In this document: piece by piece, positions 5,145 to 27,259 of the stretch | Position numbering within the stretch: the stretch's first letter is position 1 | How the letters are laid out: each line of letters opens with the position of its first letter | DNA from: Planctomycetales bacterium | Lineage (GTDB): Bacteria > 4484-113 > JAFGCY01 | Assembly (NCBI GenBank): GCA_022646745.1 | Contig: CP060262.1 | Location: forward strand, 1,650,001-1,682,000 | Reading direction: 5' to 3' | DNA: 32,000 nucleotides | Position numbers and translations under genes: made by a program | The notes under the pieces: generated by a model | Databases searched by the model: none | What the model saw: the letters and a program-made list of their open reading frames with translations, nothing else | What the model was told of the DNA's origin: nothing

Positions 5145-6333
5145 TGAACGGAAGGGCGCTGACCTGAGCGCCCTGCGGATTGATTCACCGGCACTGCGGC
5201 CCGGCCTGCGGCGCAGCCTGCCGCTGGTCGAGATCCTGATCGTGGCCTGCATCCTGCTGGCAGCCTGGCTGCTGCTGGGTGACCGCCTGCCGGCGCTGAA
5301 GCCACAGGCCGAGCAGGTCGAGGCAGTGCAGCCCGCCACTGGAGGTGCAGACACCGCCCAGCGGGACAGCCTGCCCCCCGCCGCTCCCGGTGAGATCGTG
5401 GCCGGCGGCTACATCGAAATCATCCCGCCGGGGGCCACGGTGGTTTCCAGTGACGTGGATGCGCGCATCACGGCGATCCATGCCGTGCCCGGCGAGCATG
5501 TCAGTGCGGGCCAGCTGCTGGCAACACTTGATTCCAGCCAGCTGGAGCTGGAGCGCGGGAAGCTGCGGGCGGAGCGCGAGGTTGCCAGCCGTGAGCTGGA
5601 ACTGGCGCAGGCCGGCAGCCGCACGGAGGAGATCGAGGCCGCGCGCGCGGTTGTCAATTCCGCGAAGGCGGAGCTGGAACTGGCGCGCGAGGAGGCCCAG
5701 CGCGCGATCGAGCTGTTCGAGAAAGGCGTGGTCTCAAGGGCGGAGATGCGCACCTTCGAGACGCGCCGTGACACGGCCGAGGAGCAGCACAATGCCGCCC
5801 TGTCCGAGCTGGGCAGGCTGCAGGCAGGCACCCGCAGCGAGGAGATCAGCATCGCCGAGGCCCGCATCGGCCAGCTGGACAGCGAAATCAATGAACTGAA
5901 CTGGAAGGTCGGGCACTGCGAGCTGCGCAGCCCGGTTGACGGCGTGGTGCTGGAGCAGCTGGCGGAGATCGGAGACTGGGTCGGCGTTGCCAAGGACGAC
6001 CCCTCGAGTGCCGCGATCCTCTCGCTCTATGACCCGCAGCATGTGCAGGCCTGGGCGGACATCAACCAGCGCGACAGCGGGCTGCTCAGTGTCGGCCAGC
6101 CGGTCACGCTGACAACGGATGCGCATCCGGACCGCCCCGTCAGCGGCCGCTTGAGTGCGATCATGCCGCTGGCCAGCATCCAGAAGAACACGGTGCAGGT
6201 CAAGCTCAGCATCGACGAGGTGCCAGAGGACTTCCGGCCCGGGCTCGGGGTGCGCGTGGCGATAGACACAAGGGAAGCAGGCGCTGGCAACAGCGAGGCC
6301 GAAGATGGCAATCGGGAGGCCGGTGATGCCTGA
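5137..6333 (+). CDS. HlyD-family membrane-fusion / periplasmic adaptor protein (MacA-like)
   Basis: It has an N-terminal TM (LVEILIVACILLAAWLLL), a lipoyl-like motif (IHAVPGEHVSAGQLLATLD), a long coiled-coil (ELELAQAGSRTEEIEAARA...) and a beta-barrel part (CELRSPVDGVVLE). I prefer the ATG at 5137 (SD GGAGGG at 5123..5128), which overlaps the ArsR stop by 8 nt. The track start at 5104 is an N-terminal over-extension. Confidence 0.85.
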   Translation: MDDERKGADLSALRIDSPALRPGLRRSLPLVEILIVACILLAAWLLLGDRLPALKPQAEQVEAVQPATGGADTAQRDSLPPAAPGEIVAGGYIEIIPPGATVVSSDVDARITAIHAVPGEHVSAGQLLATLDSSQLELERGKLRAEREVASRELELAQAGSRTEEIEAARAVVNSAKAELELAREEAQRAIELFEKGVVSRAEMRTFETRRDTAEEQHNAALSELGRLQAGTRSEEISIAEARIGQLDSEINELNWKVGHCELRSPVDGVVLEQLAEIGDWVGVAKDDPSSAAILSLYDPQHVQAWADINQRDSGLLSVGQPVTLTTDAHPDRPVSGRLSAIMPLASIQKNTVQVKLSIDEVPEDFRPGLGVRVAIDTREAGAGNSEAEDGNREAGDA

Positions 6334-10728: not shown

Positions 10729-13700
10729 GTGTTCAGGCGTTGCCTGAAGGGGCTGCTGGCCCTGATCGCAGTTTACATGTCCTTTGGCGCAAGCGCAGCG
10801 CTCTGCGCGGACACGCCTTCACTTGAGAGAAACAACGACAGCGTGCGCCTGCGCCTCAAGTGGAAGCACCAGTTCCAGTTCGCCGGCTGCTACGCCGCGC
10901 TGGAAAAGGGCTACTTCTCGGAACTCGGGCTGGATGTTGAGCTGATAGAAGGCGGCGTTGACAGCCCTGTGGAAGCCGTGCTGGATGGCCAGGCTGATTT
11001 CGGGATCGCGGGGCCGGAACTGTTGCAGAGCCGCCTCAACGGGGCGGACGTGGTTGCCCTGGCAGTGATCATGCAGCAGACCCCCTCCACCCTGATCAGC
11101 CTGTTCGACAGCGAGATCAGTTCCGTGTCGGACCTGCGCAACAGGCGCCTGATGCTCTACAGTGCTCCGCGCTCAGTTGAGATCAGCTCGATGCTGATGA
11201 AGGGCGGGCTGGCCGATGGGCAGTATGAGGTGCTGCCGCTGAATGGGAACGCCATGCAGCTGCTGATCGCCGGCAAGGTTGATGCCATCCAGGGCTACAC
11301 CACAAATGAACCCTTCCTGCTGCACCAGCTGGGATACGAGACCCGGCTGCTGAACCCCTCCGATGAGAATGTCGACTTCTACGGCGACACGCTGTTCACG
11401 ACGGAGCGGGAGATCCGTGACCACCCGGCGCGCGTGATGGCGATGCGCCAGGCACTGCTGCGGGGCTGGCAGTACGCCTACGACCATCCGGATGAGATTG
11501 CGGCCCTGATCCGCAGCAAGTACAACCCGCAGCTCGATGCGGAGCAGCTGGAGTATGAATCCCGCCTGACGCTGACGATTGTCAACCCGCCATTCTCCGA
11601 CATCGGCCAGATGAGCTCTGACCGCTGGCGCCACATGGCCGAATACATGCAGGTGTTCGGCATGGTGGACGAGCTGGACCGCCTGGACGGAATGATGTAC
11701 AGCGACTATGACATCCTTGATCCGGATGTCAGCCGCATGCGGCGCGCCCTGCTGGCACTGGCACTGGCTGCTGTACTGGCCTTCGGGCTGCTGCTGTTCT
11801 TCAACCTGAGCCTGCGGCGCGCCGTGCAGTTCCGCACCCGGGAGCTGACGGAGCTGAACCGCCAGCTCAACGGCCAGCTGGAGCAGAACCACAGCGTGCT
11901 GCAGGAGCTGGAGAAGCACCGCCGCGGCTATGCCGAGGCCCAGCGCATCGCGCGGGTTGGCAACTGGAGCTATGACGTCGTCAGTGGCGAGCTGGACTGG
12001 AGCGAGGAGGTGTTCCGCATCTACGGGCTGGACCCGCAGATCACCCCCTCGCTGGCCGACGCGCTGGAGGTGACGCATGAGGATGACCGCAGCATGCTGC
12101 GCATCGCCCTGCGTGACGCGATCCGCGATGGCCAGCCGGGTTCGATCGTGCGCCGCATCCACTACGCGGATGGACGCATCGGCTATGCCAACACGGTGTT
12201 CGAGCCGGTGATGAACGGGCAGGGACGCACGGTGATGCTGCGCGGGACCGTGCAGGACGTGACCGAGATCCGCCTCGCGCAGGAGGCACGGGAGCAGAGC
12301 GAACAGGCCTACAACGCCCTGTTTGACAACAGTATTGAGCTGATCTTCGTGGTCGACCCGCAGGGCCGGCTGATTGAGGCGAATGACAACGCCCTGCAGC
12401 GCTTCGGCTTCGGCCGGGCTGACCTGGGCAAGCTGGGACTGCAGGACATCACCAGCCGCAATGAGCATAACCGCGCGATGCGCGGCATCACGGAAGTGCT
12501 CACCGGCGAACGCCGCGGTGCGCTGCAGGAGTTCAGTGCCACCACGCGCAGCGGCGAGCGGATCTGGTACGAGTCAGCCGGCGTGCGGCTGGAGCGTGAC
12601 GGGCAACCCTGGGCGGTGCTGGTGGTGGCCCGCGACATCACTGACCGCAAGCATGCCGAGGCCGAGCGCCGCCACCTGGAATCACAGCTGCGCCAGACCC
12701 AGAAACTGGAGGCGATCGGCACCCTGGCCGGCGGCATCGCGCACGACTTCAACAACCTGCTGTTCGCCATCCGTGGCAACGCCGACCTGGCGCTGACCCT
12801 GCCCGGAGACGAGGAGAACACGCGCGAGTGCCTGGCTGAGATCCTCGCGGCCTCGGCGCGCGCCACCGAGCTGGTGCAGCAGATCCTCTCGTTTGCCCGC
12901 AAGAGCGAGGTGGAGATGCGGGTGGTGGACCTCAACCAGACCTTCGCCGAGGTGCTGCGCCTGATCCGCGCCACTATCCCGGCCAGCATCGAGATTGTCA
13001 GCGAACTGAGCCACGGGGAGAACCTGGTATATGGCGACGTGACCCAGATGCACCAGCTGATGATGAACCTGTGCAGCAATGCCGGTTATGCGATGCGCGA
13101 GAAGGGTGGCCGGCTGACGATCCGCCTGCGCCGCTTCGGCCCGGTGGCCGAGTTCGGCGGGCGCGTGATGGACCCGGCCAGCAGCTACCTGATGATCAGC
13201 GTCGAGGACACCGGCACGGGCATCAGCGAGAAGGTGCGGGAGCGGATCTTCGAGCCCTTCTTCACCACCAAGGGCATGGGCGAGGGCACCGGCATGGGAC
13301 TGTCCGCCGTGCATGGCATCGTGGTGGCAATGAAGGGTGCGATCGAGGTGCAGAGCACGCTCGGGGTCGGTACCACCTTCAACATCCTGCTGCCCGAGGC
13401 GCAGCCCGAGATGCTGGAGCTGCCCACGCTGCGCCGCGACGTGCCGCGCGGCCATGAGCGCGTGCTGGTGGTTGACGACGAGGAGGCGATCGTGCGCGTG
13501 ATGTACACCTCGCTGAGCAACCTCGGCTACAGCGTGACGGCCTGCACCGGCAGCAAGGACGCGCTGGAGAAGTTCCGCCTGAGCCCGGACGGATTTGACC
13601 TGGTGATCAGTGACCAGGCGATGCCGGGCATGACCGGCAACCAGCTGGCACAGGAGATCCGCGGAATCAGGGATGACCTGCCGATCATCATCTGTTCCGG

Positions 13701-13815
13701 CAACAACACCGCACCCAGTACCGAGGAGGGGGAGCGTGCCGGTGTGGCGATGTTCCTGCACAAGCCGGTGGAGCGCCGCGAGCTGGCCGAGGCGATCCGC
13801 AGCCTGCTGGACTGA
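10729..13815 (+). CDS. Hybrid sensor histidine kinase / response regulator with an N-terminal periplasmic SBP-like (NMT1/SsuA-type) sensor domain, TM, coiled coil, two PAS domains, HisKA, HATPase_c and REC
   Basis: Signal/TM at the N-terminus. SBP-like region: LRLKWKHQFQFAGCYAALEKGYFSELGLDVELIEGG. Second TM: ALLALALAAVLAFGLLLFF. PAS-like: VGNWSYDVVSGELDWSEEVFRIYG and NALFDNSIELIFVVDPQGRLIEAN. H-box: GGIAHDFNNLL. G-boxes: DTGTGI and GTGMGLS. REC: VLVVDDE...DLVISDQAMPGMTG...LHKP. GTG start. Confidence 0.9.
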   Translation: MFRRCLKGLLALIAVYMSFGASAALCADTPSLERNNDSVRLRLKWKHQFQFAGCYAALEKGYFSELGLDVELIEGGVDSPVEAVLDGQADFGIAGPELLQSRLNGADVVALAVIMQQTPSTLISLFDSEISSVSDLRNRRLMLYSAPRSVEISSMLMKGGLADGQYEVLPLNGNAMQLLIAGKVDAIQGYTTNEPFLLHQLGYETRLLNPSDENVDFYGDTLFTTEREIRDHPARVMAMRQALLRGWQYAYDHPDEIAALIRSKYNPQLDAEQLEYESRLTLTIVNPPFSDIGQMSSDRWRHMAEYMQVFGMVDELDRLDGMMYSDYDILDPDVSRMRRALLALALAAVLAFGLLLFFNLSLRRAVQFRTRELTELNRQLNGQLEQNHSVLQELEKHRRGYAEAQRIARVGNWSYDVVSGELDWSEEVFRIYGLDPQITPSLADALEVTHEDDRSMLRIALRDAIRDGQPGSIVRRIHYADGRIGYANTVFEPVMNGQGRTVMLRGTVQDVTEIRLAQEAREQSEQAYNALFDNSIELIFVVDPQGRLIEANDNALQRFGFGRADLGKLGLQDITSRNEHNRAMRGITEVLTGERRGALQEFSATTRSGERIWYESAGVRLERDGQPWAVLVVARDITDRKHAEAERRHLESQLRQTQKLEAIGTLAGGIAHDFNNLLFAIRGNADLALTLPGDEENTRECLAEILAASARATELVQQILSFARKSEVEMRVVDLNQTFAEVLRLIRATIPASIEIVSELSHGENLVYGDVTQMHQLMMNLCSNAGYAMREKGGRLTIRLRRFGPVAEFGGRVMDPASSYLMISVEDTGTGISEKVRERIFEPFFTTKGMGEGTGMGLSAVHGIVVAMKGAIEVQSTLGVGTTFNILLPEAQPEMLELPTLRRDVPRGHERVLVVDDEEAIVRVMYTSLSNLGYSVTACTGSKDALEKFRLSPDGFDLVISDQAMPGMTGNQLAQEIRGIRDDLPIIICSGNNTAPSTEEGERAGVAMFLHKPVERRELAEAIRSLLD

Positions 13816-14913
13816 TCAGCCGGCGGGCAGCAGCTCGAGCACGAAGTCGTCGTCAGGTCCGCGCCTCCAGGCGGCTGTGTCCTCATCGCCATCGTTGTCA
13901 AACCAGGGGCTGTAGGTGCGCACATGCACCGTGCGTCCATCGGGCAGGAACTCCAGCAGGCGGATCCAGCCCTCTCCGCCGAGCGGCAGGAACTGCGCGT
14001 TGAACAGCATCTGGTGGCAGTCGTTGCCGGCGTCGTTTGGCGTCGTCAGCCGGCCGACCATGTCGCCGCCGACATGCCCGCTGAACACGAACTGCATCAG
14101 CGGCTGCCCGCGCACCAGGCCGTTCCAGAGGTCCTCGCCGTCGCTGGTGTCATCCGCCGTGCCCTTGTAGCTGTAGGGGTTGGCCGCCTGGCTGTCACCC
14201 TTGCTGGCCCAGTCGTAGCGGGTATCGTCGTGGTACATGTAGGCATGTGTCAGCAGCAGCTGGGTATGCCCGCTGTACTGCGGCAGGCTGCAGACCGCAT
14301 CAGCCCAGCGCACGATCTCAGCCCGCGGACCCCATTCCAGAGAGACGATCAGCATCTTCCTGCCGTCCGGCGCGGTGAAGTCGTAGATGGCATTCTCCAT
14401 GGTCACCCTGCCTCCGTCCGGCGACCATGAATCAGCCAGCATGCCGCCCTGGGCCGGGTCCAGCAGCGGGAAGTCCTCCAGCCGGAAGTAGTCACTGAAG
14501 CGGCTGTTGCGGTTCTCAGCATTCTGCCGGCCATAGTCGTGGTTGCCGGTTGCCATGATCACCGGGATGTCATCGCTGACCCGGCCGATGGCCTGCCGCG
14601 CATTGCGCCACTGCTGGAAGCTGTTCTGGTTGCCACTGCTCTGGGCGGCGAACAGCACGCCGTTCTGGAACACGATGTCGCCTTCCTGCAGCACGAGTGC
14701 GATGTTGAACTGCTCGCGGTGTTCACTGATCCAGTCCATGCAGTCATTCAGGATGTGCATGTGCTCACTGTGGTCCACGTAGCTCTGGATGTCCGGCAGC
14801 ACCACCATCAGCCAGCTGTCCTCCTCAAAGGGCCAGTCATCAGCGGAAGCGGGACCGGTCGTTGCCAGGATCAGGGCCAGCAGCAGGCAGGCCGACAGGG
14901 TGGGTTTGCGCAT
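13816..14913 (-). CDS. Secreted calcineurin-like metallophosphoesterase
   Basis: Signal peptide: MRKPTLSACLLLALILATTGPASA. Motifs: VVLPDIQ, QEGDIVFQ (GD), ATGNHDYG (GNHD), LLTHAYM, FSGHVGGD (GH). Its stop codon abuts the stop codon of the convergent kinase gene. Confidence 0.8.
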   Translation of the reverse strand: MRKPTLSACLLLALILATTGPASADDWPFEEDSWLMVVLPDIQSYVDHSEHMHILNDCMDWISEHREQFNIALVLQEGDIVFQNGVLFAAQSSGNQNSFQQWRNARQAIGRVSDDIPVIMATGNHDYGRQNAENRNSRFSDYFRLEDFPLLDPAQGGMLADSWSPDGGRVTMENAIYDFTAPDGRKMLIVSLEWGPRAEIVRWADAVCSLPQYSGHTQLLLTHAYMYHDDTRYDWASKGDSQAANPYSYKGTADDTSDGEDLWNGLVRGQPLMQFVFSGHVGGDMVGRLTTPNDAGNDCHQMLFNAQFLPLGGEGWIRLLEFLPDGRTVHVRTYSPWFDNDGDEDTAAWRRGPDDDFVLELLPAG

Positions 14914-14940: not shown

Positions 14941-17541
14941 CTAAGGCGTGTGGAAGTAGACCTTGTCCGCCACGTAGCCCGGGATCTCCAGCTTGCCGGG
15001 GTAGAGGATATGCACGGTCACATAGCCCTCGAAACCAGGTTCCAGCTCGATAACCGGGTCCGTGTAGTCGATGTAGCTCGCCTCCGGCGGGTCCACCACG
15101 TACCAGGTGTTCGGGTTCTCGGTGATGTCGAGGTCAATCTCGTCCAGCACCTGAAGGCGGTAGCGCTTGCCGGTCTCGATGATGTACGGGTCGTCCAGGC
15201 TGCCGTCACCGCCCAGCGGCGTGTCGAACAGCAGCAGCTTGGGCAGCGGGGCCAGCAGGTTGATCTTGATCGCGTCCTCGAACTCCGGGCTGACCCAGTC
15301 ATATTCATTGCCCTGCGCATCCTTGTAGCGCGCAACGGGTGTCTTGTAGCGGTAGCCGGCCAGCACGAAGGCCGGTTCGTAGATCCGCAGGTCGAAGTTG
15401 AACAGCGCACCGGAGGCATTGCTCAGGTTGAGGCTGCTGGCAGGCGTGATCTGCACGTCGAAGTTCTGGAAGTACTTGCCGGCGAAGTAGGCGACCGGAT
15501 AGATGTTGGCATCCATCGTGAGCGGGCCGCTGCCGAGGTTCTTCCAGATGCCGTCGGCGAAGTCGTCAGCGCCACCCTGCACGCCGGGGTTGATGCTGCC
15601 CTCCACCACCTCAGCGCTGCCGAGCACGTGCAGCGTGATCCTGTCCAGGGTGTTGAACGGGTCCTCGCTCTGGTTGGCATAGACCGTCACGTTGACAACC
15701 TGGCCCGGGCGGCGCTCGGTCAGGGCCGGCACCACGTGGATGCTGTCCTGCGCGCCGAACTGCTCGAGCTGGCTGACGCGGTCGGTCCAGATGCGCGCCA
15801 CCTCGCCGAACTGGCTGAGGCGCTGCATGCGGCAGTGCAGGGTCACCTGGCGGCCGGGCTCAATATCCGCTCCCGTGATGCGGCCGAGTGCCAGGCCCTG
15901 GTTGAGCGGGTTGGCATTCTCAAAGGAAGTCAGTTCGGTGAACCAGACCGAGATGTCGCTGAGCTCGGCGTCGCCGGAGTCATCGTACTGGTAGGCATTG
16001 CGCAGCTGCAGCAGGCCGCTGTCGAGCTGGATGTCCTCCACCGTGCCGACGATGGTCACGTCGTCATCGGCGTAGTACTGCTCATCTGTGCGCAGCTTCT
16101 CTTCCAGGGCATCGCTCAGGCCGTTTAGGTCACTGTCATGCAGCCATGTCTCGTTCGAGTAATCCCCGTCCCCGTTCAGGTCGCGCGCCAGTGCACCACT
16201 GGCCGGGTTGAGCCGGGTCGGAGCGCTACTGGGCTGGCCGGGAACCGTGCTTGTGGCATAGATGTCCAGGTAACTGCCGGACTGGCCGTTGGGGACCGCC
16301 TGGATGCTCTGCTGGATGCCGTAGCTCCGTCCGTCGTCTGGCAGCTTGAAGGGGAAGGACAGGGTGAACACCGCCGGGCCGTCCGGGCCGCTGGGCTGGT
16401 TGGGCTCGCCGGTGGCCGGGTTCACAGCGGGCAGGAAGTCCGTCTGCAGGTAGCACAGCTTATCGCGGTGCACTTCATCGAACATCGCCGTGCCGAAGGG
16501 CAGCGGGAAGTCAATCGGATAGTGATACGCACCGGGATCCTCGATGGGGTTTATCAGGCGCATCACCGAATAGCAGTCGTAGCTGTCCGGGTCTGAGGGT
16601 ACGTACTGTCCAAGCGCGCTGCCAGCCTTGCCGCAGAGGTCCAGTAGCTGCATGTCCAGGAAGCGCAGGCTCGCGGTCAGCTCGGCGTTGACAGCCTGGC
16701 CGCTGGCGGGGCCACCCGGATTTCCGTCACGATCGAGGGTGACGACCGTGAGCGCTGCCGCGGACGAGACGCTCTCAGCGGAGACCAGCAGCTCAAAGCG
16801 GGGCGGAAGCCCGCTGCCCGGCTCGCGGATGCCGTCTGAGTATGGCACCTGCTGCAGCAGTTCTCCATCAGCGTACAGGTGGAAGTGGTCAATCGTGTTG
16901 CCGAAGTTGCGGGCGATGGTCGTGATGTCCGCCAGGTTCAGCTCCCCGTTGCCATCCCCGTCCACCCAGTAGCGCGGGTTGAAGCGGCTCCAGGGATCGT
17001 TGCCGGTGGTGGACTGGCCGAAGTACAGTGCCAGCGGAATCAGGTCGGCGACGTTCACCTCGCCGTTGTGGTCGTAGTCCCCGAGGTTGACCGCGGTCCA
17101 GTTCAGCTTCAGGTAGTTGTCAGCGGCGGGACTGATGATGAAGTCGGTCACGCGGTTGTCAACCGCGAGGATGCTGGGATCACGCTCCTCCGGCAACCCG
17201 CTGAGCTGGATCTCGGCCGTGGCCACGGCTCCATGCAATGGTGCAAGGCTGATGTCCAGCATATTGCCATTGACCTGCGCCAGGGCAAGCAGATCGGCAG
17301 TGCTGCTCAGGAATACACTGCCTTCCGCCGGACCATCGGCAAGCCCGATGCTGCGGGTGGCACCTGTGGAGGGGATGTTGGCAGCGGACAGGCGGAGGCC
17401 ATCACGGCCTGACTGCAGGACCTCAATGGTGAGCGGCCTGCCGCTCCGCTCCGTATCCGCGCCAGCCTTGCCACCGCCGCCGCAGGAGTACAGCAGCAGG
17501 AGCAGCGGGAGCGCGAGCAGTTGGAGCCGTTGCCAGTTCAT
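14941..17541 (-). CDS. Large secreted (lipobox-like LLYSC) protein with a type-I dockerin-like double EF-hand module; the remainder is unknown
   Basis: Signal: MNWQRLQLLALPLLLLLYSCGGGG. Two dockerin-type Ca-binding repeats: DYDHNGEVNVADLIPLALYFG and DGDGNGELNLADITTIARNFG. Its ATG overlaps the MocR stop (ATGA at 17538..17541). Confidence 0.75.
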   Translation of the reverse strand: MNWQRLQLLALPLLLLLYSCGGGGKAGADTERSGRPLTIEVLQSGRDGLRLSAANIPSTGATRSIGLADGPAEGSVFLSSTADLLALAQVNGNMLDISLAPLHGAVATAEIQLSGLPEERDPSILAVDNRVTDFIISPAADNYLKLNWTAVNLGDYDHNGEVNVADLIPLALYFGQSTTGNDPWSRFNPRYWVDGDGNGELNLADITTIARNFGNTIDHFHLYADGELLQQVPYSDGIREPGSGLPPRFELLVSAESVSSAAALTVVTLDRDGNPGGPASGQAVNAELTASLRFLDMQLLDLCGKAGSALGQYVPSDPDSYDCYSVMRLINPIEDPGAYHYPIDFPLPFGTAMFDEVHRDKLCYLQTDFLPAVNPATGEPNQPSGPDGPAVFTLSFPFKLPDDGRSYGIQQSIQAVPNGQSGSYLDIYATSTVPGQPSSAPTRLNPASGALARDLNGDGDYSNETWLHDSDLNGLSDALEEKLRTDEQYYADDDVTIVGTVEDIQLDSGLLQLRNAYQYDDSGDAELSDISVWFTELTSFENANPLNQGLALGRITGADIEPGRQVTLHCRMQRLSQFGEVARIWTDRVSQLEQFGAQDSIHVVPALTERRPGQVVNVTVYANQSEDPFNTLDRITLHVLGSAEVVEGSINPGVQGGADDFADGIWKNLGSGPLTMDANIYPVAYFAGKYFQNFDVQITPASSLNLSNASGALFNFDLRIYEPAFVLAGYRYKTPVARYKDAQGNEYDWVSPEFEDAIKINLLAPLPKLLLFDTPLGGDGSLDDPYIIETGKRYRLQVLDEIDLDITENPNTWYVVDPPEASYIDYTDPVIELEPGFEGYVTVHILYPGKLEIPGYVADKVYFHTP

Positions 17542-19088
17542 TCGTACAGGTCCTTGAAGGAGGATGCTTCCCGCTTGAGCAGGGCCGGGTCGGCAATTGC
17601 CTTGCCGATCTGCTCACAGAGGATGACTACTCCCTTTTCTATCTCACTGGTTGCGGTCCGGCTAAATGATAACCTGAGCGCATTGATGTCGGAATGGTCC
17701 GGCATCAGGAACGCTCCCGGAGTGAAGTCCACGCCCGCGCGCCGTGCCATGCTGAGCAGTGCGATCCCGCGGATGCCGGCCGGCAGCTTGAGCCAGAAGG
17801 CGAAGCCGCCGTTCGGGATGTCGTAACTGCAGCCCTCCGGCAGGTGCTCTCGCAGCAGCTTGTCCATGATGTTCCTGCGCTTGCGGTATTCCCGGGCCGC
17901 ATGCCGCACATGCTTGGAATAGTAACCGCGCTGGATGAACTCATGCAGCAGCACCTGCAGGAAGTAGCTGTCCCCGCTGTCTCGCCCGAGCTTGGCAGCC
18001 ACGATGTCGTAGGCCAGGCTGGAGGGCGCGCAGATCCAGCCGACCCGGATGCCCGGCAGGAAGGACTTGGCGAAGGTGCCGATGTGGATCACGTAGTTGC
18101 CGGAGTCCATTGCCTTCAGCGGCAGCGGGGCCTTGCCTTCATAGCGCAGCTGGCGGCCATAGTCATCCTCGATGATCGGCAGCCTGAAGCGCTCCGCCAA
18201 TTCCAGCAGGGCAGATCGCCGCTCCACGGACATGGTGATCCCGGTCGGGTTGTGGTAGGTCGGCGTGACTACGATCGCCCCGATGTTGCCGGACTGCAGT
18301 TCCTGTTCCAGCAGATCGGTGCGCATCCCATGTTCGTCCAGTTCAATCTGCACAAATGGAATTCGCTGGACCGAAAGGCAGTTGAATATGCCATGGAAGG
18401 TCGGGGCTTCGATGGCAACCTTCTGGCCCGGCTTCAGGATCATGGAAAGCACGAGCCCGAGCGCGCGGCGGAAGCCGCCTGAGATGATGATGTCGTTCTC
18501 ACCTTCGGCCATCGCCACACCGTTGAGCGCCATTTCCTTCTCGAGGTGCTCAACCAGCGGCTGGTATCCCTGCGGATGGCCGGTGTCGAAGAAGAACTCC
18601 TGCGGGTTCCAGAGCATGCTGGTGGCAACCTGCTTGATGCGGTCGAAGGGGAACAGCGATGGGTCGGGGAAATTGCTTACGAAAGAAATGGTTGATCCGT
18701 GGAATTTCCGGCTCATCGGAACGCCGAAGAACTCTGTCGGGATGACAAGCGGCTCCCACTCAAGCGGTACACGGTTCTGCTGGGAGGCGATGGTTTCATC
18801 GCGGGTGCGCAGGTTGCTGCCGAGCACGATCTCCGGATGTTCGGTGATATAGGTGCCGCTGCCACTGCGGCGTTCGATGATGTTCTCCGCCGCCAGCATG
18901 TCGTAGGCGTTGAAAACCGTGGTGACGGAGACGTCAAGGTCCCTGGCCAGGTTGCGCACGCTCGAAATCCGCTCGCCGGGGGCGAGCAGGCCGTCACGGA
19001 CGAGACTCACGATCTGTTCATGGATCTGAAGGTAGAGAGGAGTCTGGCTGTCCTTATCAAGCAGGATCTTAAGGTCCACGCACCTCAA
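17538..19088 (-). CDS. MocR/PdxR-type regulator: GntR-family wHTH fused to a class I/II aminotransferase-fold (PLP) domain
   Basis: wHTH region: PLYLQIHEQIVSLVRDGLLAPGERISSVRNLARDLDVSVTTVFNAYDMLAAENIIERRSGSGTYI. This is followed by a ~400-aa aminotransferase-like region (IIISGGFRRALGLV, TPTYHNPTG, IHIGTFAKSFLPGIRVGW with the candidate PLP lysine in FAK). The start is ambiguous (TTG 19088 or GTG 19079). Confidence 0.85.
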   Translation of the reverse strand: MRCVDLKILLDKDSQTPLYLQIHEQIVSLVRDGLLAPGERISSVRNLARDLDVSVTTVFNAYDMLAAENIIERRSGSGTYITEHPEIVLGSNLRTRDETIASQQNRVPLEWEPLVIPTEFFGVPMSRKFHGSTISFVSNFPDPSLFPFDRIKQVATSMLWNPQEFFFDTGHPQGYQPLVEHLEKEMALNGVAMAEGENDIIISGGFRRALGLVLSMILKPGQKVAIEAPTFHGIFNCLSVQRIPFVQIELDEHGMRTDLLEQELQSGNIGAIVVTPTYHNPTGITMSVERRSALLELAERFRLPIIEDDYGRQLRYEGKAPLPLKAMDSGNYVIHIGTFAKSFLPGIRVGWICAPSSLAYDIVAAKLGRDSGDSYFLQVLLHEFIQRGYYSKHVRHAAREYRKRRNIMDKLLREHLPEGCSYDIPNGGFAFWLKLPAGIRGIALLSMARRAGVDFTPGAFLMPDHSDINALRLSFSRTATSEIEKGVVILCEQIGKAIADPALLKREASSFKDLYE

Positions 19089-19111
19089 TTATTCCAGAAT
19101 CAGCAAAGCAG

Positions 19112-19124
19112 AAAGTAATCACTT
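19112..19124. promoter_or_regulatory. Imperfect palindromic box AAAGTAATCACTT close to the MocR start codon (variant of the AGTGATCA box)
   Basis: Read directly, 24-36 nt upstream of the TTG at 19088. It is related to the four perfect AGTGATCA boxes further upstream. Confidence 0.35.
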
Positions 19125-19224
19125 CGTATCGTTTTTGGAAGAACGCTTTGTGGCAGCACTTATATGGCGGTTCAGGTGGCCGGCCTGGGGACTGCCCGTT
19201 CGCCATTGATACAGGTCCACACCT

Positions 19225-19254
19225 TATATTCCAATCAGTACATTCTGATGTCAA
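19225..19254 (-). promoter_or_regulatory. Candidate promoter of the MocR operon: perfect -35 TTGACA (19254..19249) with a weak -10 (AATATA/GAATAT) 17-18 nt downstream
   Basis: Minus-strand reading: TTGACAtcagaatgtactgattggAATATAagg. The -10 is poor, so this call is tentative. Confidence 0.3.
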
Positions 19255-19311
19255 TGTTCAGTAGTATTGAGACTGCCGTATTCTCCGTCAGGCCTTTATC
19301 CATGGGGAATC

Positions 19312-19373
19312 AGTGATCATGCCAAAATCATCAGAAAGTGATCATTGCTGCAATATCAATAGCTGAGTATCAT
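19312..19373 (+). promoter_or_regulatory. Regulatory module 1: AGTGATCA (19312..19319) - N17 - AGTGATCA (19337..19344), abutting -35 TTGCTG (19345..19350) - N17 - -10 TATCAT (19368..19373)
   Basis: Read directly. It is followed 6 nt later by a 10-bp-stem hairpin (19380..19410). The geometry is identical to module 2. Confidence 0.55.
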
Positions 19374-19474
19374 CTCCATAGCGCACCTCCATCGGCCCGT
19401 GGGGTGCGCTATCCTCTTTCTTGGGCCTGCCGAATACCCCCGCACGAATTCCAGCTCCTGAGATCCTGTTGCAA

Positions 19475-19536
19475 AGTGATCACTTTCTCATACATACAAA
19501 GTGATCATTGAGATGCACCCCATAATCCCGTACCAT
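19475..19536 (+). promoter_or_regulatory. Regulatory module 2: AGTGATCA (19475..19482, inside the 14-bp palindrome AAAGTGATCACTTT) - N17 - AGTGATCA (19500..19507), abutting -35 TTGAGA (19508..19513) - N17 - -10 TACCAT (19531..19536)
   Basis: Read directly. It is followed 6 nt later by a 7-bp-stem hairpin (19543..19564). Both hairpins carry GCCCGTGG. Confidence 0.55.
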
Positions 19537-19542
19537 GCTAAG

Positions 19543-19714
19543 GGGATCCGTGCCCGTGGATCCCGTGAATCTCGGCACGTATTGCGCGCCGAACTGGTCC
19601 AGGCGGGTGCGAGCCTGCCTGCAGCATGAATAACTTACGCTTACACCAAAAGCGCCGCGAGGCAGTTATTCAAGGCGGTGGAGCAGCAATGACTCCATCG
19701 CCTTAATGCTTTCT
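19543..19714 (+). ncRNA. Candidate ORF-less structured transcript downstream of module 2 (hypothetical sRNA or leader)
   Basis: Successive hairpins: GGGATCC/GGATCCC (19543..19564); GAATAACT/AGTTATTC (19628..19671); and a 12-bp stem AAGGCGGTGGAG/CTCCATCGCCTT (19672..19704) followed by AATGCTTTCT. No ORF longer than ~30 codons, and no family recognised. Confidence 0.25.
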
Positions 19715-19716
19715 AA

Positions 19717-19804
19717 GGGAACAGGGAACAGGGAACGGGGATCAGGGAACGGGGATCAGAAGCAGAAACAGAATCAGAAGCAGAATCAGAAGCAGAAGCA
19801 GATT
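19717..19804. repeat. Composite microsatellite: 6 heptamers (GGGAACA GGGAACA GGGAACG GGGATCA GGGAACG GGGATCA) followed by 8 hexamers (CAGAAN)
   Basis: Read directly: heptamers 19717..19758, hexamers 19757..19804. Same architecture and orientation as 474..577. Confidence 0.9.
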
Positions 19805-19933
19805 CTGTAGCGGCGGCTTCCAGCCGCCGGACTTCAGAGCTTACATAACTCAGCATCCACTAACCAAGCTATCAGGAATCTTCTGGCGGCTGGCTGCCGC
19901 CACTCCAGCGAGCAAAATGCTCGCGCTCCAATC

Positions 19934-19966
19934 CTCATCCCGCATACCTCATACCCCATCCCGCAG
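19934..19966. repeat. Tandem heptamers CTCATCC CGCATAC CTCATAC CCCATCC CGCAG(TA), about 30 nt downstream of the stop of the minus-strand gene 19997..21493
   Basis: Read directly. Same unit family as 4006..4040. A hairpin TAAAGGCC...GGCCTTTA lies between the stop codon and the array. Confidence 0.85.
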
Positions 19967-19996
19967 TAAAGGCCCGAGCCCTGCGCCCAGCGGCCT

Positions 19997-21493
19997 TTAC
20001 AGCTGCCGCTCGATCTTGGCAATCGTTGCGTTACGGTCCCGGTTGTCCGGGTCGAGCTTCGCGGACTGCTTCAGTGAGGCGAGGGCCAGTTCGGTGCTGC
20101 CGGTGGAAAGGTAGAAGCTGGCCAGCATGTCATGCGCGTCCGGGTCGGACTGGTTGTGCTGAACGTGCAGCTGCAGCAGCGCAATCGCCTGCTTCGGCAG
20201 GCCGTCGCGCACCAGGTGCTTGCCGGTCGAGACCACCAGCTCAGTGAGCTGCTGCTCGCTCAGGCTGCGGCTGGCGGCACTGTAGATCCGCTCCGCCCCG
20301 CGCCCGCCATTCTCGTAGAAGTCGTGCTCCAGGTCGCGGCGTGCGATGAAGCGCGGGTCCTCGAAGTCCGCATAGGGCAGCCAGTCGAAGGCCGGGTGCG
20401 GTCCGTCCAGCACGGTGCCGGCCAGGCGCTCGGCCACGCTCAGGCCGTTGGCGGAATTCGTCAGCATGATGATCCCGCTGCCGAGCTGCGGGTCGACCAT
20501 CACGAAGCTGCGGTAGTCCAGGTTGTCACCCCACTGCCAGACATTGTTGCCATGGCGGCCGGCCTCGATGCCGAAGCCCAGCCCCCAGTAGACGCTGCTG
20601 TCATTCTCGCCGCCGAAGAAGCCGGTCGGGCGGGCCTGGGCAGTGCTCATCATGCTGGCCAGCTTGTTGTCAATTCCCTCGCGGCGCAGCAGGGCCTCGA
20701 TGAAGCGGCCGTAGTCCTCAGCCGTTGTCAGCAGTGTGCCGGCCGGGTTCATCGTGCGCCGTGTCGGCAGGGTCTGGCCGGTCGGCCGGCCCAGCAGGTC
20801 ATGCCCGCCGGCCAGCTTGCGCGCCACCTGCTCATCGGCGACATAGCTCGAGTTGCGCATCCTGAGCGGTCCGAACACCTCGGACTGCATGAAGTCCTGC
20901 AGGTCCTCACCGGTGATGCGCTGCACCACCTGCTGCAGGTAGACGAAACCCTCGCCGGAGTATTCCCAGCTGCTGCCGGGCTCGAATGACAATTCGAGCT
21001 CCGCCCCGCTGGTCCAGTTCGGCAGGCCGCTTGTATGACTGAGCACCATCCGCGCCGTGATCTCACGGTAGCGCGGGTCATGCTTCAGCCGCGGGTTCTC
21101 CTCATACTCGCACAGCGGGCGGTCGAGGTCGATCAGTCCGCGGTTGGCCAGCCGCAGCACGGCGTAGGTGAACAGCGGCTTGGACAGTGAGGCGGCGAAG
21201 AAGCGCGTGTCACGCTCCACCGGCCGGTTGGTGGCACGGTCCATCGTGCCGAAGTTGCCAACATAGCTGACGCGGCTGTGCTGCAGGACGACAACGGACA
21301 TCCCGGGGATGTCAGCACCGTCCATCAGGCGCGGCACCAGCCTGTCGAGGTCACCGTGGGTCAGTTTCGCCGGGATGGCCTGGGCCTGGCCGGCTGTGAG
21401 TACACTGAGGAAGATGACTACGGTGGCGATCAGTCTTCCCAGGCGGTCCGCATCGTGAATCCATCCCTGCAGGTGCAGCATTTCACTTCCCAT
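19997..21493 (-). CDS. Secreted serine hydrolase of the beta-lactamase/PBP (class C-like, PF00144-type) fold with a C-terminal TPR-like domain
   Basis: Signal-like region: RLGRLIATVVIFLSVLTAGQAQA. SxxK nucleophile motif: FAASLSKPLFTYAV, followed by HTSGLP and YSGEGF. The C-terminal ~100 aa (QAIALLQLHVQHNQSDPDAHDMLASFYLSTGSTELALASLKQSAKLDPDN) looks like TPR repeats. Confidence 0.85.
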   Translation of the reverse strand: MGSEMLHLQGWIHDADRLGRLIATVVIFLSVLTAGQAQAIPAKLTHGDLDRLVPRLMDGADIPGMSVVVLQHSRVSYVGNFGTMDRATNRPVERDTRFFAASLSKPLFTYAVLRLANRGLIDLDRPLCEYEENPRLKHDPRYREITARMVLSHTSGLPNWTSGAELELSFEPGSSWEYSGEGFVYLQQVVQRITGEDLQDFMQSEVFGPLRMRNSSYVADEQVARKLAGGHDLLGRPTGQTLPTRRTMNPAGTLLTTAEDYGRFIEALLRREGIDNKLASMMSTAQARPTGFFGGENDSSVYWGLGFGIEAGRHGNNVWQWGDNLDYRSFVMVDPQLGSGIIMLTNSANGLSVAERLAGTVLDGPHPAFDWLPYADFEDPRFIARRDLEHDFYENGGRGAERIYSAASRSLSEQQLTELVVSTGKHLVRDGLPKQAIALLQLHVQHNQSDPDAHDMLASFYLSTGSTELALASLKQSAKLDPDNRDRNATIAKIERQL

Positions 21494-24890: not shown

Positions 24891-25040
24891 TCTTGGGCGG
24901 AAGGGGAGCAGGCCAGGCAACGGCAAAACCGGATTTAACGAACTTCCGCCTTGCCCAGCGGATGAAGCTACTTCATTGGCAGCGAGGTCGCTTCAGCCAG
25001 ACCCGCTGGCCGATATGTTGCCAGACTGACATCTTGCCTC

Positions 25041-25061
25041 CGGTAACTTCAGGCCGACCCG
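25041..25061. repeat. Partial copy of the 28-nt CTCAACCCGTWWCTTCAGCGCGACCCGG repeat family (CGGTAACTTCAGGCCGACCCG)
   Basis: Similarity by eye to 26100..26127, 26151..26178 and 26346..26373. It lies on the left flank of the AT-rich island. Confidence 0.5.
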
Positions 25062-25374
25062 CTGAAGCTTGCCTTCAGCGCAGGCCCAGACCGACGAGCA
25101 ATCCTGAGAGACGCATTATCCAGGCGATTGTGCATTTAGTCTAGGAAGAACTGTTTATCTCCGCTGCTCATCCGTACGAATTGATGATTGAAGTCACAGA
25201 CTGGTGCGACTTGCTTTGGATTAGGTATATTATTGCACGAATAAACTGACTGGAGTGGAGGCAATGAGTTACCTTGTGGAAGGGAGAACATACATCCAAC
25301 TTCAGCTATACACTTGGCATTAATTGCGTCATGAATTGTCTGTGTGCTACAAATAGGGAAGGTTGACAACTATT

Positions 25375-25956
25375 ATGAAGAATAGAATGTTAGAGTTCGG
25401 GATAGCTCTCTTGACAGTCAGTATGTCATTTGTTCTTTGCCAGACTACGGCATATGCCGAAAGCATAGACCAGTTACTCACTTCATATCTGCATATCACG
25501 GATTCTACATTGCTGAAACTCAACGACGAAGAAAGATTGTGGCTGTGTTCCAAAATGTACGACTCTCAGTCAAGCACTGAGGATGACCAGATCCTATCTC
25601 AGATCCAACTAAAAATCGATCAAGATGAGTATTCAGTCATTCTCAAAACTCTTCATCCATCTGTTTATCATATGTTTTACCAAAGGATATCTACAGATAG
25701 TTATCTTTACAATTCAGTTGATAAAGTTGTGAAACAAAATATTGACAGTGGTGTTCTTACAAAAGAAGATCGTGCATTACTAGAAGGCAATGATATAGTC
25801 CTCTACAGTATCTTACGTGTAATTGATAAAATGTTAAGAAACTCAGAGTCGAACAGGATGAATCTTTCGGAAGAAGATAAATTATTGCTACTTACAATTT
25901 TTGAATGTTATCATTCAAATCCTAGTTACGAATACTTAATGGAAAATCTCCCATAA
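25375..25956 (+). CDS. Secreted hypothetical protein (193 aa) encoded in a strongly AT-rich island
   Basis: Signal peptide: MKNRMLEFGIALLTVSMSFVLCQTTAYA-ES. It is the only long ORF in the AT-rich stretch. GGGAAGG sits 12 nt upstream of the ATG at 25375. The track TTG start at 25363 directly abuts the SD and is unlikely. The protein is helical, rich in D/E/S/L, with no family recognised. Confidence 0.6.
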   Translation: MKNRMLEFGIALLTVSMSFVLCQTTAYAESIDQLLTSYLHITDSTLLKLNDEERLWLCSKMYDSQSSTEDDQILSQIQLKIDQDEYSVILKTLHPSVYHMFYQRISTDSYLYNSVDKVVKQNIDSGVLTKEDRALLEGNDIVLYSILRVIDKMLRNSESNRMNLSEEDKLLLLTIFECYHSNPSYEYLMENLP

Positions 25957-26099
25957 ATTCTGCGCATGTTTGATCATCCAAATTCCTTCCCTTCATCCCG
26001 GGACCACTAACGATGTTGGAGAACCAGCATATCATGTAGCCTATTACCCCCTCTCAAGTTCTGTTTTCGTGCTCCCAGCTGCGCCTGAATTCCTCAAGG

Positions 26100-26872: not shown

Positions 26873-27259
26873 ATGAATATCTATGTAGGCAACCTGTCAT
26901 ACAGGCTTTCTGATGTCGAGCTTCGCAACCTGTTTGAGGAGTTCGGTTCTGTTTCCTCGGCCAACATCATCAAGGACAAGTACAGCGGCCAGTCCAAGGG
27001 CTTCGGCTTTGTCGAGATGGACAACGAGGATGAGGCGAAGCGTGCAATGGAGGCCATGAACGGCAAGGAAGTCGGCGGCCGCGAGATCGTGGTGAATGAA
27101 GCCCGCCCGCGCAAGGAGTTCGGCGGCGGCGGTGGCGGCGGTGGCCGTCGCGGCGGTGGTGGTTATGGCGGCGGTGGCGGCGACCGTGGTGGCTATGGCG
27201 GCGGTGGCGGCTATGGCGGCGGCGGCGGCGGCTACAGCGATGGCGGCCGCGGCTGGTAA
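26873..27259 (+). CDS. RRM-type RNA-binding protein with a glycine-rich (RGG/YGG) C-terminal tail
   Basis: RNP2 is IYVGNL and RNP1 is KGFGFVEM. The tail is GGGGGGGGRRGGGGYGGGGGDRGGYGGGGGYGGGGGGY. SD GGAG sits 5 nt before the ATG. Confidence 0.9.
   Translation: MNIYVGNLSYRLSDVELRNLFEEFGSVSSANIIKDKYSGQSKGFGFVEMDNEDEAKRAMEAMNGKEVGGREIVVNEARPRKEFGGGGGGGGRRGGGGYGGGGGDRGGYGGGGGYGGGGGGYSDGGRGW

Follow-up and report, generated by a model that had tools for sequence, protein, structure and literature searches.

The 900-bp gap upstream of mocR in an uncultured bacterium of the phylum UBP7, known from MAGs only, is on balance likely to be a compact regulatory unit of the adjacent PdxR-like MocR protein, driving two small RNAs. 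Within the stretch of DNA analysed here (32 kb, hereafter the window), the whole regulatory element occupies ~420 bp. Comparison with related genomes supports two conserved, structured and previously undescribed non-coding RNAs as the predicted divergent output.

Boxes and candidate promoters upstream of mocR

Inspection of the gap identified five copies of a box whose unit is a 14-bp GntR-type palindrome, AAAGTGATCACTTT, with the core AAAGTGA; the rest of the window is free of the box. Four of the copies form two modules, each with a candidate promoter directed away from mocR, and the fifth lies beside the mocR start:

19110..19125: box 5, AGAAAGTAATCACTTC, 20-45 nt upstream of the mocR start
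19308..19321: box 1, AATCAGTGATCATG, putative distal operator of module 1, centred at about -65 relative to the start of promoter P1
19335..19348: box 2, AAAGTGATCATTGC, putative proximal operator of module 1, centred at about -40 and overlapping the -35 of promoter P1
19345..19373, plus strand: candidate promoter P1, TTGCTG (19345-19350), 17 nt, TATCAT (19368-19373); weak -35, with box 2 abutting TTGCTG
19473..19486: box 3, AAAGTGATCACTTT, a perfect palindrome, putative distal operator of module 2
19498..19511: box 4, AAAGTGATCATTGA, putative proximal operator of module 2, overlapping the -35 of promoter P2
19508..19536, plus strand: candidate promoter P2, TTGAGA (19508-19513), 17 nt, TACCAT (19531-19536); box 4 abuts TTGAGA

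The original prediction had described two pairs of the 8-mer AGTGATCA separated by 17 nt, and these were recovered on the plus strand at 19312, 19337, 19475 and 19500, with a start-to-start distance of 25 nt in both pairs. Their occurrence is far beyond chance: the window holds six matches to the 8-mer against 0.82 expected, a count reached by none of 100 shuffles, and AAAGTGAT occurs four times, always in the gap upstream of mocR, against 0.34 expected. Allowing up to three mismatches, the 14-mer is likewise found four times in 32 kb, each time inside this gap. The -35 and -10 hexamers with 17-nt spacers abutting boxes 2 and 4 could be read directly from the sequence as predicted, and the degenerate fifth box proposed beside the MocR start corresponds to AAAGTAATCACTT at 19112-19124.

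Subsequently, we compared the element across genomes. A complete element with an identical layout is present in six genomes, namely that of the window and five others whose MocR is 78-90% identical to the window's; the alignment therefore comprises six full sequences that represent about three divergent lineages, and some box comparisons took in eight aligned sequences. The more distant lineages are L003/L015, L004 and L019. All six genomes retain the boxes, the 25-bp register and two TTGnnn-N17-TAnCAT promoters, in which the length of the spacer is constant and its sequence is not. Of the five copies, box 1 is the weakest and has been conserved least (AGTGAnnAT), with a register to box 2 that is 25 bp in all genomes. 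AAAGTGA of box 2 is invariant in eight sequences, box 3 is nearly invariant with a single change in L004, and box 4 is conserved as AAAGTGAT(C/T)ATTGAG. Box 5 is kept in all eight aligned sequences and becomes a perfect palindrome, GAAGTGATCACTTTC, in L019. A Dam/GATC phase switch was considered and rejected, given that the GATC in boxes 2 and 4 is lost in several genomes that retain AAAGTGA.

For promoter P1, the -10 is kept as TA(T/A)CAT in all genomes, and a promoter scanner placed it at the matching position in L003 and L019; for promoter P2, TTGAG and TA(C/A)CAT are invariant, and the scanner called it both in the window and, in L004 and L019, at the position aligned with it. At the level of sequence, P1 and P2 thus provide the small RNAs with promoters of their own, as judged by a sigma-70-type consensus that may not be that of the phylum UBP7.

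Profile searches with nhmmer detected one syntenic copy of the element per orthologous locus in the 252 kb examined, with RNA2 hit boundaries of 19543-19714. Moreover, AGTGA-N20-AGTGA occurs 20 times in these 252 kb, and each occurrence is the element upstream of mocR. This paired-box scan, of the kind suggested in the original prediction, together with the single syntenic copy per locus excludes a generic repeat or mobile element within the 252 kb examined. A metagenome scan with CCCACGGGCCGATGGAG-N40-48-ATCACTTT returned no matches and a protein-profile scan of the same collection returned paralogues at 55% identity or less only; because neither yielded further orthologous loci, the alignment stays at six full sequences. 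In viral contigs, an 18-mer of RNA2 had no matches, and two matches to a 17-mer of hairpin H1 were dismissed as chance, the flanking stem being absent in both.

Candidate structured RNAs on the plus strand

Each promoter is followed by a segment with the features of a short structured RNA:

19378..19422, plus strand: RNA1, ~45 nt, hairpin H1 plus downstream U-rich tract CCUCUUUCUU
19542..19714, plus strand: RNA2, ~170 nt, seven helices, ending in a 12-bp stem with the tail AAUGCUUUCU
19544-49/19558-63: helix P1 of RNA2
19572-77/19582-87: helix P2
19600-08/19613-21: helix P3
19628-35/19664-71: helix P4
19639-42/19650-53: helix P5
19654-56/19661-63: helix P6
19672-83/19693-704: helix P7, the 12-bp stem

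H1 consists of a 10-bp stem, a 1-nt bulge, four further base pairs and the hexaloop CGGCCC, 14 bp in all. The original prediction placed a hairpin 6 nt past each -10; the hairpins themselves stand, and H1 actually begins 4 nt after the -10 and is longer than described. H1 looks like a terminator located at the start of promoter P1, which would give a transcript of ~45 nt. Six of the eight nucleotides after its stem are T, and the bulged stem falls outside the rules of the terminator scanner. The RNA1 segment is 87-100% identical across genomes, with one compensatory change from C-G to A-U and one G·U at the base of H1. The motif GCCCGTGG, noted earlier in both 5' hairpins, is indeed present in both within the window and invariant in hairpin 1, but it is missing from the first hairpin of RNA2 (helix P1) in two of the six genomes (L003/L015) and was rejected as a shared functional motif. 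A pairing of RNA1 with the ribosome-binding site of mocR (CGCACCTCCAT with CGCACCTCAAT) was also dropped as not conserved, because the H1 changes of L003/L015 have no counterpart in the partner, and L004/L019 have a different mocR 5' region.

RNA2 folds with an MFE z-score of -4.6. Its consensus structure comprises 48 pairs with 96.1% of cells paired, compared to 30-46% when the partners were slid as a control, and the covariation check on homologous regions proposed earlier yielded seven pairs with compensatory changes, with an observed covariation score that none of 500 shuffles reached. Helices P4-P7 are invariant in the alignment and therefore uninformative on structure. The predicted terminal 12-bp stem was confirmed at 19672-19683 / 19693-19704; P7 and its tail were called as a terminator by the scanner in L003 and L019, and no terminator was called in the window because the P7 tail there has just 4 T in 8. 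Indels of 1, 2, 3, 6 and 8 nt lie inside every small ORF (26, 32, 42 and 57 aa on the plus strand; 29 and 32 aa on the minus strand), and those of 1, 2, 6 and 8 nt shift the frames between genomes. No ORF is conserved, in agreement with the ORF-free divergent region originally described.

The strand of the signal bears on a clearly improbable alternative, in which the block would be the long structured 5' leader of the mocR operon, or another of its cis-regulatory RNAs, starting from a minus-strand promoter around 19720-19800. The region does lie directly upstream of mocR, and its minus strand folds well too, with a similar alifold folding term; the fold is nevertheless worse (z -3.7) and its covariation penalty is +3.39 against +0.09 on the plus strand. 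The plus strand has 15 G·U cells and one A·C cell, and reading the reverse strand turns the 15 G·U cells into A·C mismatches, one of them invariant in the 12-bp stem. U-rich tails after H1 and P7 and conserved -35/-10 pairs occur on the plus strand only. A leader reaching mocR is further opposed by its two margins: past 19715 the sequence is unconserved and, in L002, holds an inserted gene, and the filler at 19151-19305, between the RNAs and mocR, is just 22-35% identical in distant genomes. Taken together, the compensatory changes, the asymmetry of G·U and A·C, the orientation of promoters and terminators, and the frame-breaking indels argue for non-coding RNAs on the plus strand. The original view of a hairpin-rich RNA as the divergent target is accordingly supported, in the form of a conserved, structured plus-strand RNA, and its single transcript of 170-330 nt is replaced by what are probably two units of ~45 and ~170 nt.

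The same asymmetry, a property of single-stranded RNA, makes it very unlikely that the element acts at the DNA level only, as a nucleoprotein complex on the five boxes with the hairpins serving as inverted-repeat protein sites. Inverted repeats with compensatory changes can be dimer sites, and P4-P7 are invariant in sequence and not just in structure; seven distinct helices with variable loops would, however, be unexpected for protein sites, and the helices sit exactly within the limits set by promoter and terminator syntax.

Conservation of the segments was assessed against the three more distant lineages. Identity is 87-91% for the H1 segment, 72-82% for boxes 3-4 with promoter P2 and 66-74% for RNA2; in the same comparison, third codon positions of mocR are 45-67% identical and filler is 22-35% identical. 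Segments that are 66-91% identical against such backgrounds exclude the reading, raised in the original prediction, of a fossil of a lost operon. More broadly, a non-functional element is barely plausible, whether as what decay has left of a lost divergent target gene or as a generic repeat in which promoter-like strings arose by chance. Related MocR genes (L010/L011/L013 and L022) do have a divergent protein-coding lipoprotein gene, so that a gene could once have stood at this position; conservation of the segments far above that of synonymous sites and flanking filler, which points to purifying selection, compensatory changes that keep the helices, one syntenic copy per genome and the lack of a conserved ORF all speak against it.

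RNA2 might instead be a convergent antisense-type element acting in cis, with regulated read-through of its weak terminator into the 3' end of a beta-lactamase-fold gene or an LGT/radical-SAM operon and with RNA1 possibly modulating the terminator. Every gene past the terminator is convergent to RNA2, the U-tail is weak, and, by reading, the upper stem and loop of H1 (loop CUCCAUCGGCC) match the 3' arm of P7 (CUCCAUCGCC) at 10 of 11 nt, both being invariant. We nonetheless regard this alternative as distinctly unlikely: the neighbour varies between genomes, L004 lacks the beta-lactamase gene and has a second terminator after RNA2, the spacer past the terminator is a plastic region containing tandem repeats and an inserted gene, and pairing between H1 and P7 lies beyond the reach of covariation. 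In the window, a duplex scan for targets with the H1 loop and the linkers of RNA2 as queries gave only the trivial antisense match above background.

Rfam release 15 had no family at gathering score in the window. Hits at E<=10 were noise only (mir-317 at 19.7 bits against 56, FTX_1 and a snoRNA) and lay over the box region rather than the RNAs.

MocR and its putative operator boxes

The gene bordering the gap heads a predicted operon on the side away from the RNAs:

17538..19079, minus strand: mocR, regulator with a GntR wHTH and an aminotransferase fold, 513 aa from GTG at 19079
14941..17541, minus strand: 866-aa lipoprotein-like gene, sharing 4 nt with the mocR stop
13816-14913: metallophosphoesterase-like gene, 365 aa, next after the 866-aa gene

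The mechanical ORF of mocR begins at TTG 19088 instead, and mocR is also called as a gene on the source contig. Its product matches the Pfam domains GntR (7.9e-14, residues 18-81) and Aminotran_1_2 (9.9e-20), and its relatives in the PDB include GabR (4n0b, over residues 1-433) and PdxR (7pq9). IGTFAKSFLPGIRVGW aligns with LGTFSKILAPGFRIGW of the aminotransferase 1x0m, and the PLP-lysine motif is TFAKS, whose lysine we take to be the Schiff-base lysine. Against the NCBIfam PdxR equivalog NF052282, MocR scored 323.5 bits with a cut-off of 320, a marginal match. Each genome has at least three paralogues of MocR at 50-55% identity.

The 866-aa gene would be co-operonic with mocR, given their 4-nt overlap. 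Its product has no match in Pfam or NCBIfam, and its N-terminus, LLLLYSCGGGG, is by reading a lipobox. The pair of mocR and an overlapping large gene of no known function is kept in all relatives examined. This protein-coding operon downstream of mocR is an addition to the original prediction. Among the annotated ORFs of the 32-kb window, no pdxS/pdxT, B6 or GABA genes were found.

We propose that the boxes are operators of the adjacent MocR, an assignment based on box 5 in the mocR 5' region, on the tracking between box type and recognition helix, and on the likeness to the PdxR box. Paralogues of MocR carry other box variants upstream, and the box type follows the recognition-helix sequence: VSVTTVFNAY and VSMTTIYSAY go with AAGTGAT, VSLATVQTAY goes with AAGTGTAC, and SKNTVS goes with GTGTCC and CTGTCCC. 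In L022, the arrangement of box, TTG, N17 and -10 stands before mocR itself. The AAAGTG core recalls the C. glutamicum PdxR box, AAAGTGGW (PMC4494728); the original prediction likewise attributes boxes of the AAAGTG type to PdxR. MocR motifs typically comprise 2-4 boxes, direct or inverted (PMC5320631); here, five repeated boxes in the regulator's own upstream region, conserved in 6-8 sequences, form a MocR-type operator arrangement. The comparison thereby lends support to the earlier view of the boxes as probable MocR operators.

The form of the boxes also raises the possibility that the RNAs are real and the boxes belong to another factor encoded elsewhere, such as a classical GntR/FadR-type dimer preferring 14-bp palindromes, with the adjacency of mocR reflecting coincidence or co-regulation. 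The boxes are GT-N4-AC palindromes like classical GntR operators, and such palindromes match head-to-tail MocR dimers less well than classical GntR dimers, direct repeats having been proposed as the better fit for the former (PMC5320631). In addition, characterised MocR direct repeats lie two or three helical turns apart (PMC5320631), whereas the 25-bp register, in both modules and in all genomes, corresponds to ~2.4 turns, not an integral number. On the other hand, the boxes occur in the 252 kb only upstream of this mocR orthologue, one of them at its own start; box type follows the MocR recognition helix across paralogues; and ~20% of MocR regulons are predicted with inverted repeats, PdxR itself using mixed repeats. 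Ownership by another factor is accordingly unlikely in our estimation, and MocR remains the preferred candidate.

A putative regulator-plus-small-RNA circuit

From the sequence features, conservation, RNA structure, strand and absent coding potential described above, we infer transcription, MocR binding, the sign of regulation and action in trans as follows. MocR would bind the five GntR-type boxes through their AAAGTGA core. Box 5, presumed to be the autoregulatory operator of mocR, would lie over its promoter or 5' region and autoregulate the operon that mocR forms with the lipoprotein-like and phosphoesterase-like genes. In each of the two box pairs, with their 25-bp register, the boxes would be centred at about -65 and -40 relative to one of a tandem pair of sigma-70-like promoters directed away from mocR. 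The TTG of the weak -35 comes from the proximal box, a layout that would suit activator-dependent promoters, as at GabR/gabT and PdxR/pdxS. Promoter P1 would read straight into the 14-bp hairpin and U-tract to give RNA1, with read-through as a possibility, and promoter P2 would give RNA2, from its 5' hairpin to the putative 12-bp terminator. The RNAs would be the divergent output of the regulator, most likely acting as regulatory small RNAs in trans via invariant loops and linkers; the invariant segments include the H1 loop, GCAGCAU and the P5 loop ACACCAA. More tentatively, a MocR sensing PLP or an amino compound may have a small-RNA pair, rather than an enzyme operon, as its primary divergent output, with the RNA1 loop mimicking the terminator arm of RNA2; such mimicry would allow the two RNAs to cross-talk.

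The locus resembles those of PdxR (B. clausii, C. glutamicum) and GabR (B. subtilis) in its regulator, a GntR wHTH joined to an aminotransferase-fold domain with a PLP lysine, in the several short direct or inverted boxes upstream of the regulator gene and, as in PdxR-pdxST and GabR-gabTD, in having one box set over the regulator's own promoter and another abutting an outward -35. It differs from PdxR-pdxST and GabR-gabTD in that the outward promoters would drive non-coding RNAs and there are two tandem copies of the operator-promoter module. Further differences are the 14-bp palindromic boxes in a 25-bp register, the position of mocR at the head of an operon with a lipoprotein-like gene, and the lack of nearby B6 or GABA genes.

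In the enterobacterial pairs OxyR-OxyS, GcvA-GcvB and SgrR-SgrS, the factor gene and the sRNA gene diverge from one control region, the sites of the factor are found upstream of the sRNA -35 or across it, and the sRNA combines stem-loops with a U-tailed terminal hairpin. None of these factors is a MocR protein, all being of the LysR or SgrR type, and no sequence or Rfam relationship links their RNAs to the present ones; here, two tandem promoters and an extra hairpin RNA of ~45 nt are found. To our knowledge, all described MocR-family regulators act on protein-coding genes, for B6 synthesis or for GABA, taurine, ectoine or rhizopine catabolism, and a full-text literature search did not find a MocR regulator linked to a small RNA. 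A regulator-plus-small-RNA circuit would thus apparently be new for the MocR family.

If confirmed, the circuit would add riboregulation to the outputs of PLP-dependent transcription factors and, as a first MocR-to-sRNA circuit, would couple metabolite sensing to post-transcriptional control in uncultivated UBP7. The locus would then also define a new structured RNA family, and a candidate phylum without genetics would gain a promoter, operator and terminator set defined by sequence comparison alone. Owing to its compact size, the element is directly testable in a heterologous host.

Two candidate promoters for mocR itself were also noted, TTCCAA-17-TACTTT overlapping box 5 and a TTGACA near 19250.

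The gap upstream of mocR and its conserved block

G+C content was ~64% overall and 52% at window positions 19001-20000. The features of the locus are as follows.

17538-19079, minus strand: MocR-type regulator gene (mocR), encoding the domains GntR and Aminotran_1_2
~900 bp, between two minus-strand genes: gap upstream of mocR
19378-19422, plus strand: candidate RNA1 of ~45 nt, hairpin 1 (H1) and a U-tract
19542-19714, plus strand: candidate RNA2 of ~170 nt
19997-21493, minus strand: beta-lactamase-fold gene, far border of the gap

Since mocR is overlapped by 4 nt by an 866-aa gene, which is followed by a 365-aa metallophosphoesterase-like gene, the protein-coding genes served by the mocR promoter lie downstream and not divergent from it. 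The 866-aa protein (14941-17541, minus strand) had no family match in Pfam or NCBIfam; its N-terminus, LLLLYSCGGGG, reads as a lipoprotein signal, and two dockerin/EF-hand-like DxDxNGxxNxxD repeats were recognized by eye. A large gene (605-877 aa) without a Pfam or NCBIfam family lies behind or facing every MocR of the clade, with partners in the related loci L020, L021 and L010, and the pairing looks like an uncharacterized conserved partnership. Convergent to the mocR operon is a hybrid histidine kinase gene (10729-13815, plus strand), whose product combines an NMT1/THI5-like periplasmic-binding domain at its N-terminus with PAS domains and a receiver; this synteny is kept at all orthologous loci.

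Proteins 78-90% identical to the window MocR were found in five other assemblies, and the comparison set comprised six full sequences, including the window. The shared gene order was radical-SAM / LGT / two small genes / (beta-lactamase) / long gap / mocR / large unknown gene / phosphoesterase / hybrid histidine kinase. Alignment of the gap delineated a conserved block of ~600 bp (window 19090-19714), with unalignable DNA on either side. Among the three more distant lineages, identity to the window reached 87-91% for hairpin 1 and its U-tract, 72-82% for boxes 3-4 with promoter 2, and 66-74% for RNA2. For comparison, third codon positions of mocR gave 45-67%, and the filler stretches (19151-19305 and 19425-19468) 22-35%. 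Given that the block far exceeded both comparators and that the sequence beyond 19715 was plastic, these data indicate that the block is under purifying selection, with sharp edges. The original prediction had offered the fossil of a lost target operon as one alternative; the identities do not bear this out, and selection on the block together with its sharp edges rules out a decaying remnant.

Directly after the putative RNA2 terminator, two adjoining tandem arrays occupy 19716-19802: AGGGAAC x6 (or a 14-mer x3) and CAGAAG x7.7. At the aligned position, CAGTGGT-like repeats occur in the related locus L019 and GTTGTCAG in L004, with none in some genomes, so this spacer is hypervariable. Related locus L002 carries a ~370-bp insertion (4807-5187) between the beta-lactamase-fold gene and RNA2, aligned just past window ~19800-19960, that encodes a four-helix-bundle protein of 127 aa, 23S_rRNA_IVP (Pfam 7.5e-39), whose gene is missing from the source gene table. 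Over its first ~270 nt and upstream DNA, the MocR gene of L028 (479-2020 of a 2.4-kb ENA contig) matches the window at 93-100% identity; thereafter identity is mostly ~50-70%, with one later 90-nt stretch at 96%, a pattern that reflects either chimeric assembly or recombination between paralogues.

Operator-like boxes and predicted promoters

The boxes, promoter elements and stem of the original prediction were all located where it had placed them. The box unit is a 14-bp palindrome, AAAGTGATCACTTT, with a perfect copy at 19473-19486; allowing up to 3 mismatches, it occurred at four sites in 32 kb, all inside the gap. AGTGATCA matched six times in the window (0.82 expected), and AAAGTGAT occurred four times (0.34 expected), each time in the gap. 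In 252 kb of related sequence, all 20 occurrences of AGTGA-N20-AGTGA were copies of the mocR-upstream element, which excludes a generic repeat within that sequence.

Both modules run in the order box, TTG, exactly 17 nt of unrelated sequence and TA(T/A/C)CAT, with no indels in any genome, in keeping with the predicted -35/-10 pairs, whose spacing is fixed while the spacer sequence varies. Calls by a promoter scanner fell on promoter 2 in the window, in L004 and in L019, and on promoter 1 in related loci L003 and L019, always at aligned positions on the strand heading away from mocR. The -35 element of promoter 1 is weak (TTGCTG, TTGATG, TTGTCC, TTGGAA or TTTGCA among genomes), and only its box-derived part is constant. 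Since the boxes are also centred near -40 and -65, the arrangement would fit the geometry of an activator-dependent promoter.

Probable structured RNAs in the divergent slot

The plus-strand sequence starting from promoter 2 (19543-19716) folded with z = -4.6. The six-genome consensus structure of RNA2 contains seven helices and 48 pairs, on which 96.1% of cells formed standard pairs, versus 31-46% after sliding partners by 1-3 columns. The covariation check proposed for homologous intergenic regions, run here on six genomes, yielded seven pairs with compensatory double changes, all in helices P1-P3, and none of 500 shuffles reached the observed score; helices P4-P7 are invariant and thus carry no information on structure. 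The loop of the terminal 12-bp stem varies freely, while the stem itself persists together with the U-rich tail (AAUGCUUUCU or AGUUAUUUUC), and a terminator was called there in L003 and L019, with no such call in the window.

H1, directly after promoter 1, consists of a 10-bp stem, a bulge, four further pairs and the hexaloop CGGCCC, and varied by one compensatory C-G to A-U change and one G·U. Its position ahead of CCUCUUUCUU and a non-conserved spacer suggests that promoter 1 yields a terminated RNA of ~45 nt, with read-through into RNA2 possible. The predicted 170-330 nt of hairpin-rich RNA holds as regards structure, but probably comprises two transcription units, of ~45 and ~170 nt. The H1 upper stem and loop, CUCCAUCGGCC (19382-19392), nearly duplicates CUCCAUCGCC (19693-19702), which forms the 3' arm of the putative terminator of RNA2, and both segments are invariant in all genomes. 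By virtue of this near-repeat, competition of RNA1 for the 5' arm of that stem is conceivable; cross-talk between the RNAs, or a target common to both, is possible.

Helix cells contained 15 G·U pairs (one invariant, in the 12-bp stem) versus one A·C, and folding the reverse complement turned the G·U cells into A·C mismatches, the covariation term of alifold rising unfavourably from +0.09 to +3.39. This asymmetry, with agreeing promoters and U-tails, argues that the RNAs lie on the plus strand, divergent from mocR. As predicted, the region lacks a coding sequence: every ORF of at least 20 aa was disrupted between genomes by 1-, 2-, 6- or 8-nt indels. No Rfam family matched at its gathering threshold, and what a cut-off of E<=10 let through was noise. 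In profile searches of related sequence, each orthologous locus gave a single copy, and the rest of that sequence gave none. Collectively, we consider it likely that these are conserved plus-strand genes for structured non-coding RNAs, transcribed from promoters of their own.

Paralogue group 2 (L010, L011 and L013) and related locus L022 carry a lipoprotein gene in the divergent position, whereas the window's orthologue group has a lipoprotein-like gene downstream of mocR and RNA genes in the divergent slot. The non-coding divergent target is thus a variation, specific to this lineage, on a MocR arrangement that is classical in other respects.

The adjacent MocR as candidate regulator

We infer that the boxes belong to the adjacent MocR from the site of box 5, the tracking of box type with recognition helix, the design of L022 and the likeness to PdxR in score and box. 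In all genomes, box 5 precedes the mocR start by 20-45 nt; its L019 copy is perfectly palindromic. Related MocR genes have their own repeated boxes upstream, distributed as follows.

Recognition helices of MocR proteins and their upstream boxes
VSVTTVFNAY (window's MocR group): AAGTGAT
VSMTTIYSAY (L022): AAGTGAT
VSLATVQTAY: AAGTGTAC
SKNTVS(I/V)AY: GTGTCC and CTGTCCC

In L022, box-TTG-N17-AATAAT, resembling the modules here, immediately precedes mocR. The protein passed the NCBIfam PdxR model marginally (323.5 bits, cut-off 320), and the Corynebacterium glutamicum PdxR box is AAAGTGGW (PMC4494728). Predicted MocR motifs generally comprise two to four boxes, direct or inverted (PMC5320631), and the PdxR site is a bent 48-bp sequence with two direct motifs and one inverted (PMC10450172). 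Against the assignment to MocR, the 25-bp register corresponds to ~2.4 helical turns, in contrast to the 2 or 3 turns of characterized MocR direct repeats (PMC5320631), each box is palindromic in itself, the window lacks B6 genes and the PdxR score is marginal. On these grounds, the protein is filed as a MocR-family regulator and the name PdxR is withheld.

In the circuit we propose, one or more effector-responsive MocR dimers would occupy the boxes, the mocR operon would be autoregulated through box 5, and promoters 1 and 2 would be controlled by MocR, activation being the simplest case, with RNA1 and RNA2, each beginning with a 5' stem-loop, as output. We favor this entire chain by a narrow margin, while a role of the RNAs as trans-acting base-pairing sRNAs is a tentative suggestion. 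A local RNA target scan found no target. An apparent match of H1 to the mocR ribosome-binding site was rejected, as it was not conserved among genomes.

Elsewhere in the window, 7 kb from the RNA genes, a gene at 26873-27259 (plus strand) encodes a 128-aa bacterial RRM_1 protein (Pfam 2.5e-24). Around a 197-aa ORF without a family match, G+C falls sharply to 40% at 25001-26000, versus ~64% elsewhere, and this segment may be foreign or non-coding DNA.
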